A DNA stretch of 64,000 bases from positions 206,654 through 270,653 of the IMG/VR virus record IMGVR_UViG_3300023283_000076; one strand, 5' to 3'. The DNA is from a virus (Duplodnaviria; Caudoviricetes). Each line of letters opens with the position of its first letter. Position 1 is the first letter of the stretch. Made by a program: the position numbers and the translations under genes. The notes beneath the pieces were generated by a model. The model was not told the DNA's origin, ran no database searches, and was given only the letters and a program-made list of their open reading frames with translations. Below are positions 8,571-34,924 of the stretch, one piece after another.

Positions 8571-9569
8571 ATGCAAGAAAACAATAAACAACCTAATCCT
8601 CTTATAGAAAAGAGTAGGGCAGCTATTCCGGGTGTTGTATTTCGTCTTCCCTCACGAGGGAAAATATATGATGAGGGTGTATTAGACGAAGGTGTAGAAG
8701 AAGGCGAGGTGCTAGTATATCCAATGCGCCTAAAAGAGGAACTCAAAATGAAATCAGTGGATTCTATCTTACAAGGAACTGCTGTTTCTGATTCTATTAA
8801 ATATTGTGTTCCTGAAGTGTTAGATCCTTTGAAATTGTGCCCGGAAGATGTTGATTATTTAATAACAACAATTAAAAAAATGACTCATGGTAGTACGTTT
8901 AAATTTAAAGATACTTGCATGAAATTAGAAGACCATACAAATATTCCTACACCAGATAATGCATTATCTGAAATGAGTGAAGAAAATAGAACAAGTAATA
9001 TTGAACTCCCCGAAGATGTCTCTCAAGATGACTCTGAGGGTTCTGAAAACAAAGCTGACACGCAAGATGCAATTAAAAAAGAAAATATAAACAATCTTGG
9101 AGAAAATAGTAGCGTATGTGAATTTAACGTGTCTTTGGATTTTTTTCTTAATAATGCAAAAGAACTTAATATTGATGAATATAAAGAAAAAAATGCATTA
9201 ACATTGAATGGATTTAATATAGAATTTCATCCCATCACATTTGAAGCGTTTAAAGAATTAAATACGTTAAATCTTAAAGACCAAACTAAAATGGATGATG
9301 AAGAATATTTTAATTTTATAAATGAATTTAGTAATGTTAATATAGCTAGAAGAATTAAAAAAGTTGATGATATATCAGATCCAAATATTATATCTGAATG
9401 GGTAGAAACGTTATCTTTAAGTGATAGAGAAAAAATATTTAATAAGGTAGCTGAACTGCAAGACTGGGGTATAGACTTTTCGTATAATATTAAATGTAAT
9501 ACATGCGGGAAAACTAAAAAAACGGATCAATCATATATAAATCCGTTGTATTTTTTTTTAATATACTAA
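8571..9569 (+). CDS. gp26: Baseplate hub assembly protein gp26-like, with acidic insertion
   Basis: RLPSRGKIY...VYPMRLKEELKM...L-PEDVDYL; C-terminal CNTCGK zinc knuckle and INPLYFF end. Confidence 0.75.
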   Translation: MQENNKQPNPLIEKSRAAIPGVVFRLPSRGKIYDEGVLDEGVEEGEVLVYPMRLKEELKMKSVDSILQGTAVSDSIKYCVPEVLDPLKLCPEDVDYLITTIKKMTHGSTFKFKDTCMKLEDHTNIPTPDNALSEMSEENRTSNIELPEDVSQDDSEGSENKADTQDAIKKENINNLGENSSVCEFNVSLDFFLNNAKELNIDEYKEKNALTLNGFNIEFHPITFEAFKELNTLNLKDQTKMDDEEYFNFINEFSNVNIARRIKKVDDISDPNIISEWVETLSLSDREKIFNKVAELQDWGIDFSYNIKCNTCGKTKKTDQSYINPLYFFLIY

Positions 9570-9601
9570 AGATCGGAAATACTGAGGAAATTACAAAATA
9601 T

Positions 9602-9808
9602 ATGAAAGCCCTGCAAAAGGGTAGCAGAAATCTTATACAATCTGCTATACATATATCATATTTCATGCGTGGAGGCATTCAGTATGAAGATGTACTTGAA
9701 AGAACTTTCTTTGAAAGAAGCGAAATGATAGATTACATAAATGATAGGATAAAACGTGAATCAGAAAAATGCAGGGAGAGTAAAGGAAAGCTCCCGCCAA
9801 TATACTAA
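9602..9808 (+). CDS. gp51: Baseplate hub assembly catalyst gp51-like
   Basis: 68 aa after gp26; YFMRGGIQYEDVLERTFFER pattern. Confidence 0.55.
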   Translation: MKALQKGSRNLIQSAIHISYFMRGGIQYEDVLERTFFERSEMIDYINDRIKRESEKCRESKGKLPPIY

Positions 9809-10505
9809 TATAATTTCTATAGACCCATCCACCAGTTGTACTGGATTATGTATAAATGGAAAGTTATATACTATTGTTCAACACGAACTCGCATATACTA
9901 AAAAAGATAAAGCAAAACGATGGTTCGAACTTTCTTCTTCGTTCTGTGATATAATAACATATAATAAAAGATCTAAAACCGGTTCTTATTCAGAAGAAGA
10001 AATATCAAAACTTGAGTATTATTATAATATAACCGATCATATAATTAATGTAATAAAATCTAACGTTGTTGATTTTAAAAATTCAGTTGTTTTAATAGAA
10101 GGATTTAGCTATGGTTCGTCTTCTGGTCATTTAATAGATTTAGTTGGTCTTTCTACTCTAGTCAGATCAAGATTATGGAATATGGGTTTTAATATAAAAA
10201 TTATAGCACCCGCAGACTTAAAAGCAATGACTGCAAGATTAAGTTACGACCCTATAGATGTTGGCAAAAAGAAACCTAAATTAGAGTGGAGAAACAATAG
10301 TGGTGTGTCTGGTGGATCCTTTGATAAACATGATATGTATTCAGCAATATTAGACAGTAGTAAAACAAACTCAAAATGGAAAACATTTTTACAAGAATAT
10401 TCAGATGAAATATTGAACATGAAAAATGTTCCAAAACCTATAGATGATATTAATGATGCGTTTTTATTATATAAAATATTTAAAGAGAGTTTAACCCCCC
10501 GATAA
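9756..10505 (+). CDS. ruvC: RuvC-like Holliday junction resolvase / RNase H-fold nuclease
   Basis: ISIDPSTSCTG, VLIEGFSYG and DDINDAF acidic catalytic motifs; GTG start with AGGA SD. Confidence 0.75.
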   Translation: MNQKNAGRVKESSRQYTNIISIDPSTSCTGLCINGKLYTIVQHELAYTKKDKAKRWFELSSSFCDIITYNKRSKTGSYSEEEISKLEYYYNITDHIINVIKSNVVDFKNSVVLIEGFSYGSSSGHLIDLVGLSTLVRSRLWNMGFNIKIIAPADLKAMTARLSYDPIDVGKKKPKLEWRNNSGVSGGSFDKHDMYSAILDSSKTNSKWKTFLQEYSDEILNMKNVPKPIDDINDAFLLYKIFKESLTPR

Positions 10506-29841: not shown

Positions 29842-30789
29842 ATGGATGAGTTACTACAAAAACTAGTCGAAAGTGAACTTCTAACGGAAGACACTAAACA
29901 CCAGCTTGAAGAAGCTCTATCAAAAAAGATGGAAGAAAAGACGCAGCAAATAAGAGAAGAGGTTGAGACAGAAGTTAAAACTGAACTTGCTGAAAAATAT
30001 GCTGCAGATAAGGAAGAGTTAGTAGAAGCAATGGATACTGCTCTCGAAAAAGCATTAAATGAAGAAATATCTGAACTTAGAGAAGATATTGAAAGTTTCC
30101 GAAACTTAGAAACTGAATATGCAGAAAAACTTGTAGAATCTCGTCAGCAAATGGCCGATAACGTGAAAAAAGATATGACTGAGCTTCTAGAGGGATTAGA
30201 TGCATATGTCGATCAAAGATTACATGCAGAGCTTGATGAACTTAGAGAATCAATTGAAGATGTTCGTAAAGAAAACCATGGGCGTAAGATTTTGGAAACC
30301 ATTGGTGAAGAATATAGAAAAATGTTTACTGAAGAAGAAGATCTTGAGCAACAGGCTCTAGAAAAAGAAGAAGCACTTAAACAAGTTAACGAACAACTTA
30401 AAGAAGCTAAAGATGAATTGAGAAGAGTTGAACGTGACCAGAAGATGGAAGAGGTACTTGAAAGTCTTTCTGGTCAGAAGAAAGAAGTAATGTCTGCGAT
30501 TCTTCAAGGGGTTCCAACAGAACAACTTGATGAAGCGTATCGACGCTATATTGGAAGAGTCCTAACGGAAACTTCTAATGACGATAGTTCGGAGAAGGAT
30601 AATTCAGTACTTGCCGAAAAAGAAAACGAGGATGAGTCTAATGTTGACGACTTAAGAGTAGCATCTGGTGATTCTAGCGTTATTACCGAAGATCTTGATA
30701 ACGCTGATGACCTTCCAGAAAACTCTCAGGTCCGTAAACTTGATGAAAAAACTCGTAACCGTTTGAAAATGCTGAGTGGTATCAGTTAA
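29842..30789 (+). CDS. gp22: Prohead core scaffold protein gp22
   Basis: Acidic coiled coil directly upstream of MCP; AAGGAG SD. Confidence 0.85.
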   Translation: MDELLQKLVESELLTEDTKHQLEEALSKKMEEKTQQIREEVETEVKTELAEKYAADKEELVEAMDTALEKALNEEISELREDIESFRNLETEYAEKLVESRQQMADNVKKDMTELLEGLDAYVDQRLHAELDELRESIEDVRKENHGRKILETIGEEYRKMFTEEEDLEQQALEKEEALKQVNEQLKEAKDELRRVERDQKMEEVLESLSGQKKEVMSAILQGVPTEQLDEAYRRYIGRVLTETSNDDSSEKDNSVLAEKENEDESNVDDLRVASGDSSVITEDLDNADDLPENSQVRKLDEKTRNRLKMLSGIS

Positions 30790-30843
30790 CCAATAACATA
30801 GTGTAAAAAATAATAGTTAAAAAACAATAAAGGAGACTATAAA

Positions 30844-32295
30844 ATGGATGATAAACAAACACTAGTAGAAAATTGGAATGAGACCAAGGATGTCCTTCTC
30901 GATGGCCTTAAACCCGGACAGAAAGAAATCGTTGGACCTCTTCTAGAAAATCAACGTAAGCATATGTTGAACGAATCTGCTGCACAGGGTGCCGTACAGG
31001 CCCATGACGTAGCAAACTTCCGTAAAACACTGCTTCCAATGATTCGCCGTATTATCCCCGGTACAATCGGGAGTGAAATTGTAGGTGTTCAACCTATGTC
31101 AGGACCAGTGTCATTGGTTTATACTTTGAGATACAAGTATGAAGAAGACATGACGCACGATCCGGGCCGTTCACCATTTGGTGGATTTGATATTGAACCC
31201 GGTGATGAGGCTTTCGGTAACGAAAAGCTAATTCGTCAGTTCTATGCCGGTCAGGTTGCTGAATCAAATACACCATTCGAAGGGCTTGATCAAACTGCAG
31301 GAGCATCTGGTATTGCTGCAGCCGGAGGCGATGGAACATCTGATCCTGATGAAATCGATGCTGCTACAGCAGACGGTCAGGGTTGGCACTCTGAAGAAGA
31401 CGTAACCACATATGAAACTGGAACTACACTATTCGGTGAGCCAGTTGGTGGATCGTTGAAGGGTGGTTCTGGTAGCTTGCTAGAAGGCTCAGGCGGACGT
31501 AAGATGACCCTAGAGATCATCAACCAAGCTGTTGAAGCTCGTACCCGCAAATTACAAGCAGGTTGGACAATGGAAGCAATGCAGGACATGGATAGCCAGC
31601 ACGGTATTGATGTGGAATCAGAGCTTACCAAGGCACTATCTGCCGAAATTGTGCAGGAAATTGATGCTGAAATCATAACTGATCTTCTTGCTCTAGCAGG
31701 AACAACTAGAACATATGATTTCAACGAAACCGGTGGTTCTAACGGTTATGCACCAGCTTTCGTTGGTGACCGTTTTGCTAACCTAGGTGTTCGTATCAAT
31801 GAAGTTGCGAATGAGATTGGCCGTAAGACACGTCGCGGAACAGGTAACTACATCGTTGTATCACCAATGATTGTTTCTGTTCTACAGTCTGCAGCTAAAG
31901 CAGTATTCGCACCTGCCGTTGAGGGTAGCTTCAAAGGACCTAACAATACATATCTAGCCGGTACACTAAACGGTCAGATTAAGGTCTACAGCTACCTGTG
32001 GAACGCTGCACAGCCAACTGATGGTGAAGCGTTTAGTGCCGGACAAGGTCTTGGAAACGACCAAATCCTAGTTGGTTATAAAGGTGGTAATGGTGAAGTG
32101 GATGCCGGTTACTGGTATGCACCTTACATTCCATTGATGGGTTCCGGTGTGGTTGTTAACCCTGTTACCTTCCAGCCAGTAATGAGCTTAATGACTCGTT
32201 ATGGTAAGGTTGCTCTAACAGATACTACAACATCTCTCGGGAATTCAGCCGACTATTACGGTAAAATTAATGTTACTAACCTAGCGTTTCTCTAA
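30844..32295 (+). CDS. gp23: Major capsid protein gp23
   Basis: IVGVQPMSGPVSLVYTLRY, EAMQDMDSQHGIDVESEL, YAPYIPL, MTRYG; LNE cleavage site. Confidence 0.97.
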   Translation: MDDKQTLVENWNETKDVLLDGLKPGQKEIVGPLLENQRKHMLNESAAQGAVQAHDVANFRKTLLPMIRRIIPGTIGSEIVGVQPMSGPVSLVYTLRYKYEEDMTHDPGRSPFGGFDIEPGDEAFGNEKLIRQFYAGQVAESNTPFEGLDQTAGASGIAAAGGDGTSDPDEIDAATADGQGWHSEEDVTTYETGTTLFGEPVGGSLKGGSGSLLEGSGGRKMTLEIINQAVEARTRKLQAGWTMEAMQDMDSQHGIDVESELTKALSAEIVQEIDAEIITDLLALAGTTRTYDFNETGGSNGYAPAFVGDRFANLGVRINEVANEIGRKTRRGTGNYIVVSPMIVSVLQSAAKAVFAPAVEGSFKGPNNTYLAGTLNGQIKVYSYLWNAAQPTDGEAFSAGQGLGNDQILVGYKGGNGEVDAGYWYAPYIPLMGSGVVVNPVTFQPVMSLMTRYGKVALTDTTTSLGNSADYYGKINVTNLAFL

Positions 32296-32313: not shown

Positions 32314-32339
32314 AAAGCCCCGCCACGCGGGGCTTTTTT
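32314..32339 (+). terminator. Rho-independent terminator after MCP
   Basis: AAAGCCCCGC-cac-GCGGGGCTTT plus T-run. Confidence 0.92.
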
Positions 32340-32388
32340 ATTTCTATAAAAGAAACATCGCAAACTACTTCCGTTTTCAAGTTTAAGC

Positions 32389-32402
32389 TGTTATAATAAA
32401 TA
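32389..32402 (+). promoter_or_regulatory. Extended -10 promoter (TGnTATAAT) overlapping AATAAATA
   Basis: TGTTATAATAAATA upstream of ATG at 32422. Confidence 0.6.
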
Positions 32403-32421
32403 TATCAAAAGGTAGTTTGTT

Positions 32422-34035
32422 ATGAAAAAAGAATATTATGATTATATTGTTAACGAAATAAAACTAAGACCCAAGAATATAGATTTGACCACAAACGACG
32501 TACAGGATATAGAATGTCTTCTATGCGGTAACATATTTAAGGCAGGCGTGAAAGGTAAGGTAAATAATTATAGAAAACATGGGATGAAAGGGTGTAAAGA
32601 ATGTACTTCAATCCAAAGATATGAAAATATAAGAAATGATAGAATAAAAGAATTAGAGGAAAGATTTGAGCTATATAATATTGACCCGAAGACTGTAAAT
32701 AATATGTCTATGGTTAAAGTTCGTAATAAAAAATGCGACCACATTTTTAAAGTAAAATACGGAAATCTATTAAATCGTGACGTAAATTGCCCCATATGCA
32801 ACACAGAACGAAAAAGAGAGCAATTTAGACAATTTAATGACGAGCGCCATGAAGAGTCATACTTATTGAAAGAAGGTTTCGACGCATATAAACAGAAAGT
32901 GTACAAGCTTACTAGAGAAACATATAGAAAACACAAAGGCAAGATCAATCCTGAGAACCATACAAGAGTATTAAGTGGTGAGAAAGGCTACCATTTAGAT
33001 CATATCGTATCTGTAAGAAATTCCTTTGATTTAGGAGTCCCGCCAGAAGTATGTGCAGATTATAGAAATATGCGCATGGTGAAATGGAAGGATAATAATA
33101 AAAAGTGGAAGCGCTCTTCTCTTAGAATACCAGAACCCTATTATCCATATGTTAATAATACATCAGATGAATTTATAAAAATAATGAAAAATTCTGTAAA
33201 AACAGATTTTAATGCATATGTAGATTTCTCTAAATTCATGCTGACCCTATATAATGAAAAGGAAAAATTTGGTATATATTACGCTCCACTTTCTACTAAT
33301 ACACAGCAGATATTAGGCTCTAAGAATTATTTTAAGCAGATGAAGGAATACTTTGCTGAAAAAAGTATCACATTAATAATAATATTTGAAGATGAATGGA
33401 TCAAGAATAGATTATTAGTTATCGACAAAATAAAACATTATATGAACCAGAGTGAAAAGACTACCATATATGGTAGAAAATGTGAAATACAGGAAATAGG
33501 AGTAACTGATAAGAATAGTTTTTTGAATGCAAATCACATACAGGGTACTTGTGTAAGTCAAATAAATTTGGGAGCCTTTCATGATGGAAAATTGGTAGCA
33601 GTTATGACATTTTCTAAGCCTAGAATATTGATGAATAAAAAAGAGCAAGCTGGAGGCGTGTATGAACTTGCGAGATTTGCGACAGATGTACAATATCGTA
33701 TACCGGGAATTGCCTCTAAATTGTTGAAACATTTTCAAAGAAACTATAATTATAGTGAGATATATTCATATGCAGATATACGCTGGTCTGATGGTAATCT
33801 TTATGAGGTATTGGGATTTGAGAAAACAATTGTTAACCCACCAAATTATCATTATATCATAAATAATCAACGAAGGCACAGATGGGGTTATCGTAAAGAT
33901 GCTTTAAAAGAAAAGTTTTTAGATAACTATGATAAAAATTTAACAGAATATCAAAATATGTTAAACATGGGACATGATAGGGTTTGGGATGCGGGATCAA
34001 TTAAATATATACTACAAAAGGAAAAGGGTATATGA
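32422..34035 (+). mobile_element. Free-standing homing-endonuclease-like CDS: Zn fingers + HNH + degenerate Vsr-like + Mom-like GNAT domain
   Basis: CLLC/CKEC/CPIC; YHLDHIVS...ADYRNMRMV..KDNNKK (HNH-like); YELARF...PGIASKLLK...SYADIRWSDGNLYEVLGF. Confidence 0.8.
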
Positions 34036-34265
34036 AATTATACTGTCCAACAATAAAAGATAAACTGCGAAAATATAAAAATATACATATGTGGTTTGCA
34101 TGGAGACCTGTTAGGATTAATGACAGTAATAGATGTGCATGGTTGGAATATGTTGTCCGAAGTTATCCGGAAGCGGGTATTAATAGGTATGGTAATGATG
34201 AACAATTATTTTTGGGAGATCCTAAATATGAAACCATAAATAATCTTGAAATGTTTAAGAAATAA
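34032..34265 (+). CDS. Hypothetical protein
   Basis: 77 aa, WFAWRPV motif, ATGA overlap. Confidence 0.65.
   Translation: MKLYCPTIKDKLRKYKNIHMWFAWRPVRINDSNRCAWLEYVVRSYPEAGINRYGNDEQLFLGDPKYETINNLEMFKK
34235..34242 (+). promoter_or_regulatory. Late promoter CATAAATA embedded in upstream ORF
   Basis: 25 nt upstream of ATG at 34268, same spacing as other late promoters. Confidence 0.5.
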
Positions 34266-34267
34266 TT

Positions 34268-34924
34268 ATGGATATACATAAAATATTAGAAGCTCCCTTA
34301 CCTGATGATTGGGATAGTAGTAAATTTTCTTCCAATAACACATTTAAAGATAGAATAGAATATGCTAAAAAAATGGCGCAACGAATCGGCGGGGGTTCTA
34401 GCAGAATAGCTTTTTTAATTAAATATAAAAATCGAGATACAATATTGAAAGTTGCCAAGAATAAAAAGGGGATGGTTCAAAATGAAAGAGAATCCATGGC
34501 CTTTAATGATGCTAGTATGCTTGGTGTTGAAGGCACTGTTACGGTTCCCATGATTGATTATGACGAAAAAAATTCACAACCCACATGGCTACACGTTGAA
34601 TACGCACCTAAATTAAAAAGTGAGAAACAATTTAGACAATTATCCGGGGGATTTGAATTAGAAGATATATTAAATTATGCTGCTAAATTAACCAATAATC
34701 GATCAATACTAGGAGCAAATAATAAAACTTTTTCGAATGAATTTACTGATAAAATATGGGAAGCCGAGGGGTCATTTGCATATGAGTTAGTTAATTTTAT
34801 AGGTAATACTGACACACATTTAGCTGATTTACGCAGACTTTCAAACTGGGGCGCATATAATAACAATCCCGTTATTATAGATTTGGGAGTAGATGAACAA
34901 ATATTGAAAAAATTCTATTCTTGA
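34268..34924 (+). CDS. Protein-kinase-like (PKL) fold protein
   Basis: IGGGSSRIAF (Gly loop), ILKVA (Lys), QNERE (alphaC Glu), ADLRRLSNWG (catalytic D..N), IIDLG (DFG-like). Confidence 0.72.
   Translation: MDIHKILEAPLPDDWDSSKFSSNNTFKDRIEYAKKMAQRIGGGSSRIAFLIKYKNRDTILKVAKNKKGMVQNERESMAFNDASMLGVEGTVTVPMIDYDEKNSQPTWLHVEYAPKLKSEKQFRQLSGGFELEDILNYAAKLTNNRSILGANNKTFSNEFTDKIWEAEGSFAYELVNFIGNTDTHLADLRRLSNWGAYNNNPVIIDLGVDEQILKKFYS

Follow-up and report, generated by a model that had tools for sequence, protein, structure and literature searches.

The gene P0001 lies in the gap 3' of the gp23 major capsid gene in the last 64 kb (64,000 nucleotides, hereafter the window) of a 270,653-bp IMG/VR virus record (IMGVR_UViG_3300023283_000076). 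It is most probably a mobile, selfish gene of the Hef-like homing-endonuclease type, in which a zinc-ribbon-HNH (ZnR-HNH) nuclease has been joined to a dead Vsr-type scaffold and to a Mom-like domain that has been kept. The record comes from a T4-like/jumbo phage, has an estimated completeness of 79%, and its capsid gene is nearest to those of Xanthomonas jumbo phages. A first copy of the gene, P0002, lies after the gp21-type protease gene and upstream of the scaffold gene, 3.5 kb from P0001. An initial annotation of the window, made from the letters and translations alone, correctly described the two genes as bracketing the gp22-gp23 pair and as having a C-terminal domain in common. This domain, the C-terminal 234 residues, is all that they share (BLASTP, 35% identity over P0001 residues 300-533, E 1e-41).

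Both genes fall in homing-endonuclease families of the PHROGs collection (family 3339, 'homing endonuclease', E 1e-65; family 559, E 7e-73), and in tblastn searches P0001 is 27-33% identical to annotated Hef proteins. Among the matches are the Hef-like g146 of AR9/PBS1 (33% identity, 93% query coverage), located within the interrupted gene of the virion RNA polymerase beta' subunit, and Hef genes of Campylobacter phages, whose genomes each have 9-11 matching places. Like phage U5 Hef, Campylobacter Hef34, AR9 g146 and LIMEstone F-LimIII, P0001 has a C-terminal core in which a Vsr-type fold is joined to a Mom-like GNAT domain by a FEDEW...H linker. Further features in common with Hef-like genes are the zinc-ribbon N-terminus, a location between conserved genes of the phage, multiple copies in one genome and a patchy distribution (PMC3296691, PMC2988022). 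I assign it on this basis to the Hef-like homing-endonuclease family. The annotation of Bacillus phage AR9 (118211-123163) divides the beta' gene into three pieces, with g146 and a separate 'group I intron VSR' endonuclease, g147, lying between them; the gene is thus interrupted by two Vsr-type endonucleases.

For phage U5, site-specific cleavage of nrdB by Hef is reported (PMC2988022), Hef-type enzymes have been assigned to the Vsr-like EDxHD family (PMC3239194), and Iyer, Anantharaman, Krishnan, Burroughs and Aravind (2021) describe jumbo-phage Mom domains fused to nucleases of the restriction-endonuclease (REase) fold (PMC7824862). The latter fusions are the same class of protein as P0001, occur in the same kind of phage (the 270-kb record being T4-like/jumbo) and likewise come in several copies per genome. 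Both the Hef-like family and the Mom-nuclease fusions of jumbo phages are therefore already known. What distinguishes P0001 is its nuclease. The canonical Hef members checked, together with P0002 and a third copy of the same genome, P0126, keep the ELD / IExxG..WH Vsr motifs and contain no HNH, whereas in P0001 and the 120 relatives closest to it an HNH domain has been added and the Vsr residues are missing. No full-length member of the HNH type was found by tblastn among 50,697 GenBank phage records, and I did not find an HNH-bearing, Vsr-dead form of a Hef-like gene described in the literature. In PMC7824862 the restriction part consists of REase-fold nucleases, and I found there no description of an HNH domain replacing an inactivated REase-fold domain.

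The domain anatomy of P0001 is based on an alignment of 34 full-length relatives and on two AlphaFold models made from sub-alignments; the AlphaFold2 (AF2) model used for comparing nuclease folds has a predicted local distance difference test score (pLDDT) of 82.7. Residues 1-139 contain the zinc-ribbon region. The three upstream CxxC pairs picked out by the initial annotation (C32/C35, C58/C61 and C123/C126) are, together with C105, invariant among the 34 relatives, 19 of which match the treble-clef family DUF4379 of Pfam. These zinc-ribbon units are the probable DNA-recognition part of the protein. The HNH-like motif lies where it was first placed, at residues 190-228: D193, H194 and N216 are invariant in 120 of 120 relatives and N225 is kept in 118. 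In the AF2 model this region forms a strand (YHLDH), a second strand (N216-MRMVK) and a helix (W..N225..K), that is, a beta-beta-alpha element. The only row other than Vsr-type folds among the top 50 structural matches of the model is the Gme HNH nicking endonuclease 4h9d, and the Atlas structural neighbours of the HNH region include HNH and GmrSD_C clusters at template-modelling (TM) scores of 0.5-0.6. Other searches were less productive. Pfam and NCBIfam scans of P0001 returned neither an HNH nor a Vsr family; a curated HNH profile matched one of the 34 relatives (E 0.003), and PF01844, in a search of the whole genome, matched only a locus other than P0001. A profile of the HNH and Vsr regions gave nothing useful against PDB sequences, a whole-family profile gave only a GNAT (E 0.11), and Foldseek with a model of the middle region surfaced the Vsr-type domain alone and no HNH chains. 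Given the motif, its conservation and the modest structural match, I am quite confident that residues ~150-231 are an HNH domain.

The N-terminal 236 residues of P0001 match phrog_5104 (E 1e-15) with the motifs in the same order. In cultured phages the members of this family are short stand-alone ZnR-HNH genes located between structural genes, at sites typical of homing genes; gp170 of E. coli phage phiS lies between the tail sheath and tube genes, and phiM19 gp80 lies after the sheath gene. Such genes encode 190-280 residues and end after the HNH, whereas in P0001 a Hef core is attached to the module. The N-terminal half of P0001 thus looks like a complete small phage HNH module, which would supply both DNA recognition and cleavage. 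Ralstonia phage RsoM2USA carries another small ZnR-HNH gene of this kind, RsoM2USA_384 (262617-263249, 210 aa, annotated as hypothetical), directly after its major capsid gene. That RsoM2USA_384 and P0001 occupy the same position suggests that the ZnR-HNH module has landed repeatedly in the capsid 3' flank.

Downstream of the HNH, residues 244-343 retain the fold common to I-Bth0305I, Vsr and DUF559-type nucleases, with structural matches to 3hrl (Z 11.3), I-Bth0305I (3r3p; Z 10.4, root-mean-square deviation (rmsd) 3.0 over 95 aligned residues) and Vsr (1cw0; Z 9.2). As the initial annotation had noted, FEDEW is kept and the ELD, IE and YWH residues are lost. In an alignment with P0002 and P0126, ELD becomes MLT, IEY becomes IYY and YWH becomes STN, so that D255, E266 and H273 of P0002 are replaced by T275, Y286 and N293. 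P0002 itself aligns to the catalytic domain of I-Bth0305I, with IE..G..YWH over E206, N208 and H213, and the same three residues of P0001 stand at the catalytic Asp, Glu/Asn and His positions of that enzyme. The structural model combines the intact fold (Z 9-11) with the three substitutions. The loss extends to the 120 HNH-type relatives: 94 have T and 11 have D where the Asp would be, no acidic residue takes the place of the Glu, which is hydrophobic or Tyr throughout, and none of the proteins has kept the His. I read the Vsr-type site of P0001 as dead and its fold as kept for a scaffold. In the same 120 proteins conservation is confined to the FEDEW stretch (E323 in 108, D324 in 116, E325 in 119), which follows the last strand as the acidic IEDDEL does in I-Bth0305I, and to the helix after it; the stretch may be a structural joint to the Mom-like domain. 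The DNA-binding parts also differ, being NUMOD/HTH in I-Bth0305I (PMC3239194) and zinc ribbons in P0001.

The C-terminal GNAT domain of P0001 most closely resembles Mom of phage Mu, a Gly-tRNA-dependent adenine N6-carbamoylmethyl transferase (PF25680; 8bv8). Mom takes ranks 1-2 in Foldseek (E 6e-8) and is matched by hhalign with E 7.6e-7 and 92% probability. With VIA-align, Mom (Z 12.5) is tied with generic GNATs (13.7), but its alignment is the longest (152 residues) and has the highest identity (20%). P0001 scores 18.9-21.1 bits against PF25680, below the Pfam gathering cut-off of 27.1, and 11 of the 34 relatives match at E<=0.01 (best 3e-8). In Mu Mom, R111, S124, D149 and R151, and also H58 and Y159, are reported as essential or important for momylation (PMC13219725). 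P0001 has counterparts of R111, D149, R151 and Y159: R418, D452 and Y461 are invariant in all 120 relatives and R454 in 119. The likeness is not complete, as S124 aligns with R426/P428, with no Ser, and the alignment has a gap at H58, next to the invariant H372. A GNAT-type R-x-x-G-x-A loop (R426..G429..A431), absent from Mu Mom, is retained in P0001, and Mu Mom is free-standing whereas the domain of P0001 is fused to nucleases. The Mom-like site looks alive; nucleic-acid binding has most likely been retained, and the domain may also acylate DNA.

The initial annotation explained this architecture as a modular exchange of nucleases on a conserved modifier scaffold. The architecture stands, with the HNH present, the Vsr site eroded and the Mom-like domain conserved, but the exchange was not a local one. 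P0001 has more than 3,000 database cluster matches, the best 120 of which are all full-length (93-99% coverage, 35-95% identity). A set of 244 proteins was gathered with both queries, from the 120 best matches to each, a sampling that favours separation; the HNH motif alone occurs in 120 of them and the Vsr motif alone in 121, and no protein has the two together. On a FastTree phylogeny of the Mom-like domain (241 rows, 199 columns), a single change parts the HNH from the Vsr types and none of 500 label shuffles gave a count as low; the local support of the separating branch is low (42). The replacement of Vsr by HNH thus appears to be a single, ancient event in the ancestor of a large metagenomic subfamily. 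It is most economically explained by fusion of a ZnR-HNH module to a Hef core, after which the redundant Vsr site was lost. Because P0001 and P0002 are only 35% identical and belong to two deep subfamilies parted by that single change, the phage seems to have been invaded independently by two old lineages.

Comparison of related genomes at the flanks of the two genes shows that their presence is sporadic. Relatives L001-L004, with capsid proteins 93-94% and 81% identical to that of the window, carry both genes at the same sites, whereas L005-L008 and L011 (72-73%) carry neither. In a more distant genome, L009 (64%), the capsid gene is immediately followed by an HNH-type gene of 41% identity, so the capsids of the gene-less genomes are nearer to the window's than that of this carrier. 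The absence of P0001 from relatives with the same head module indicates that it is not needed for head assembly. In gene-less L006 and L008, ~470 bp without sizeable open reading frames (ORFs) separate the capsid gene from the next conserved gene of ~130 aa (9398-9866). A tblastn search of this stretch found no remnant of the element at E<=1e-5, and it could be either the homing target or the scar of a lost element.

Sequence divergence provides a second sign of mobility. Against L003, synonymous divergence (dS) is 0.14 for P0001 and 0.41 for P0002, far under that of the backbone, which is at or near saturation (neck 2.7, gp22 0.96, portal not computable). In 80-codon windows, dS along P0001 is 0-0.12 up to nt ~33860 and 2.5 thereafter; it is 0.85-0.99 in the 3' part of gp23 and 0.45-2.8 in gp22. 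The values for gp23 (0.50) and gp21 (0.65) are lower than the backbone's, which may reflect codon constraint in highly expressed genes, and I do not read them as co-conversion. The result is a sharp-edged tract of near identity to L001/L003 with diverged flanks (Table 1): identity is 83-93% in gp23, 69-71% at the terminator and <55% beyond 33980. A low-dS tract amid a saturated backbone argues that P0001 and its leader were exchanged recently between lineages, and the tract is best read as the trace left when the gene was recently transferred or converted. The mobility that the initial annotation ascribed to the two genes is upheld by these data. Its further suggestion, that the pair mobilises the capsid locus between related phages, is not: the tract covers P0001 and its leader only, leaving behind gp22 and the 3' part of gp23. 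For the most recent exchange, joint movement of the capsid cassette was rejected, as the tract stops at the gp23 terminator. At the right-hand junction (33860-34300, compared with L003/L001), identity falls within the last ~55 codons of P0001 from ~98% to 77-80% and then to background. A small ORF at 34032-34265 and the first ~94 residues of the ORF at 34268-34924 have no counterpart in L003, which marks the 3' flank of the element as a variable spot.

P0001 is under purifying selection, with a ratio of nonsynonymous to synonymous divergence (dN/dS) of 0.21-0.23 against 95%-identical relatives. The initial annotation took the Mom-like domain to be the part under selection. It is indeed constrained, but it is not the sole target: against the 61%-identical gene of L004, dN is 0.15 in the HNH, 0.25 in the Mom-like domain, 0.39 in the dead Vsr fold and 0.41 in the zinc ribbons.

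As a homing endonuclease, P0001 would act in mixed infections by cutting the genome of a gene-less relative near the gp23 3' flank, and recombinational repair would then copy the P0001 gene into the cut genome. The Mom-like domain might protect the carrier genome, mark the target, or serve only as a binding aid. Several observations weigh against this reading. The Pfam HNH profile finds no match to P0001 at E<=1. The structural match of the HNH region to 4h9d (Z 5.5, rmsd 2.9, 68 aligned residues, 18% identity) has a Z at which chance likeness occurs. An hhalign comparison of the HNH-region profile with the canonical HNH protein of this genome recovered the xLDHI core only (15 columns, E 0.064), to which I give no weight. 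The low-dS tract records an exchange between two carrier genomes and not the invasion of an empty site, and the pattern of presence and absence is compatible with ancestral presence followed by loss. Finally, strict conservation of the Mom-like catalytic set is unexpected of a plain homing endonuclease and fits the view of these proteins as restriction-modification-like weapons (PMC7824862).

In that alternative, P0001 is a single-chain system whose Mom-like domain acylates the adenines of its own genome and whose HNH broadly attacks the unmodified DNA of hosts or rival phages instead of a single homing site. It is compatible with homing, and PMC7824862 predicts this role for the Mom-REase fusions of jumbo phages. 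The invariance of the essential Mom residues in both subfamilies, the survival of the domain through a complete change of nuclease chemistry and the several copies per genome all agree with it. I nevertheless consider it distinctly unlikely as the better account, since members are found in classic homing positions (introns of essential genes and gaps between structural genes) and their presence varies among close relatives. One copy in this genome has decayed to a remnant, as in the usual life cycle of homing endonucleases, and the zinc ribbons evolve at the rapid pace expected of a sequence-specific reader. U5 Hef is reported to be site-specific for nrdB (PMC2988022), and P0001 itself scores under the Pfam Mom cut-off.

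Domestication or decay is far less probable. Here the HNH would be no working nuclease, and the protein would bind or modify DNA in head-gene expression or packaging, or would simply be heading for loss. One nuclease domain is already dead, the gene sits among late structural genes and the Pfam HNH model does not recognise the motif; but the HNH residues are essentially invariant in 120 relatives, no other domain is as constrained as the HNH, purifying selection acts on the full-length frame, and the gene is missing from several relatives with the same head module. Least credible of all is a recent duplication of P0002 within the phage lineage followed by HNH gain and Vsr decay, which would suit two genes 3.5 kb apart with a common C-terminal block on either side of one cassette, but which is rejected by their 35% identity, by the hundreds of closer full-length relatives that each has elsewhere, and by the single change on the 241-row tree with no protein in 244 having both motifs.

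The replaced nuclease, the dead scaffold and the invariant Mom-like residues together suggest that the element depends on something that the Mom-like part does. A bolder proposal, which I regard as tentative and rather unlikely, is that the Mom-like domain is the indispensable active heart of these proteins and the nuclease its replaceable partner, making Hef-like genes single-chain 'modify-self, cut-other' homing elements. If so, they would mark DNA, for example by adenine acylation in or near their own target, and the carrier would gain immunity while the sequence of an essential gene stayed as it was; the HNH subfamily would then be a case of a modification core that outlasted the full replacement of one cleavage chemistry by another. 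Few selfish genes are commoner in large phages than Hef-like ones, and if the Mom-like function is DNA modification, they would offer a new route of carrier protection for homing elements and a new source of sequence-targeted DNA-modifying enzymes. The residues identified here are clean mutational targets, namely H194/N216 for cutting and D452/R454 for the Mom-like site. The assignment also puts right how a large number of metagenomic proteins, labelled 'hypothetical', are annotated.

Table 1. Features of the P0001 locus, in window coordinates.
Feature	Position	Strand	Basis or remark
P0002 (first copy), canonical Hef-like gene, 500 aa	27391..28893	+	Intact Vsr/EDxHD motifs and Mom-like domain
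gp22-like scaffold and gp23 major capsid genes	29842..32295	+	Between P0002 and P0001
gp22-type scaffold gene	29842-30789		
gp23-type major capsid gene	30844-32295		
Intrinsic terminator-like hairpin and T-run	32314..32336	+	10 pairs, 7 GC; end of gp23 transcript, left boundary of mobile tract
P0001 leader hairpin	32356..32424	+	32356-32370 pairs with 32410-32424; minimum free energy (MFE) -13.8 kcal/mol, z -2.8
Low-divergence tract	32360..33860	.	92-100% nt identity to L001/L003, diverged flanks, sharp edges
P0001, Hef-like free-standing homing-endonuclease-type gene (putative), HNH subfamily, 537 aa	32422..34035	+	
Two zinc-ribbon/treble-clef units	32515..32799	+	C32, C35, C58, C61; C105, H107, C123, C126; invariant Cys, DUF4379 matches
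HNH/His-Me-finger-type nuclease domain, residues ~150-231	32869..33114	+	Motif YHLDH...N216...N225..K, nt 32989-33105
Vsr/EDxHD-type endonuclease fold without catalytic residues, residues 244-343	33151..33450	+	FEDEW kept
Mom-like GNAT domain, residues 346-537	33457..34032	+	R418, D452, R454, Y461 match Mu Mom R111, D149, R151, Y159

The initial annotation described each gene as insulated by a promoter and/or a terminator. The terminator-like hairpin after gp23 is strong, with its stem maintained by compensatory changes (GCCCTGC/GCAGGGC in L001/L003, CCCCGT/ACGGGG in L004). An extended -10 box (TGTTATAAT, 32389-32397) precedes P0001. Sigma-70-like promoter matches as a class are not above shuffles. 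The T4-type late promoter TATAAATA occurs 11 times in the window against 15.7 expected and never before P0001. The -10 box lies in the loop of the P0001 leader hairpin, a fold equalled by 2 of 200 shuffles and nearly identical in sequence in L001/L003. Its right arm contains the Shine-Dalgarno AAGG and the ATG, both of which the fold would hide. T4 silences read-through translation of homing-endonuclease-type genes, and the design of the P0001 leader resembles this silencing. Upstream of P0002 (27352-27398) there is a 16-bp perfect hairpin (MFE -18.5 kcal/mol, z -4.8, 0 of 200 shuffles) that includes a -10-like box and extends to the start codon; in design it matches the P0001 leader, but the two sequences are unrelated.

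Outside the window, the genome holds two further Hef-like copies. P0126 (G000:C1:169475-171127, minus strand; L014:1976-3628) is a third intact gene of 550 aa adjoining glycosyltransferase-like genes. It has intact ELD/IECNG..WH Vsr motifs and a Mom-like domain, and its N-terminus carries three ~45-aa 'GGELLSxEYxG' repeats instead of zinc ribbons. The other copy is a 97-aa ORF among tail genes (G000:C1:187342-187635; L015:1843-2136), which covers the middle of the Mom-like domain only (LVSVMTFSK...SYADNRWSNGNLY) and is followed by out-of-frame sequence. It is recognisable as the decayed remnant of a fourth Hef-like gene and fits the invade-and-decay cycle of homing genes. The genome also encodes a small canonical HNH protein of 96 aa (G000:C1:74411-74701; L022:212-502; PF01844, 20.9 bits), possibly beside a tRNA cluster, as opposite-strand ORFs there read like translated tRNA genes (GIEPSTRG).

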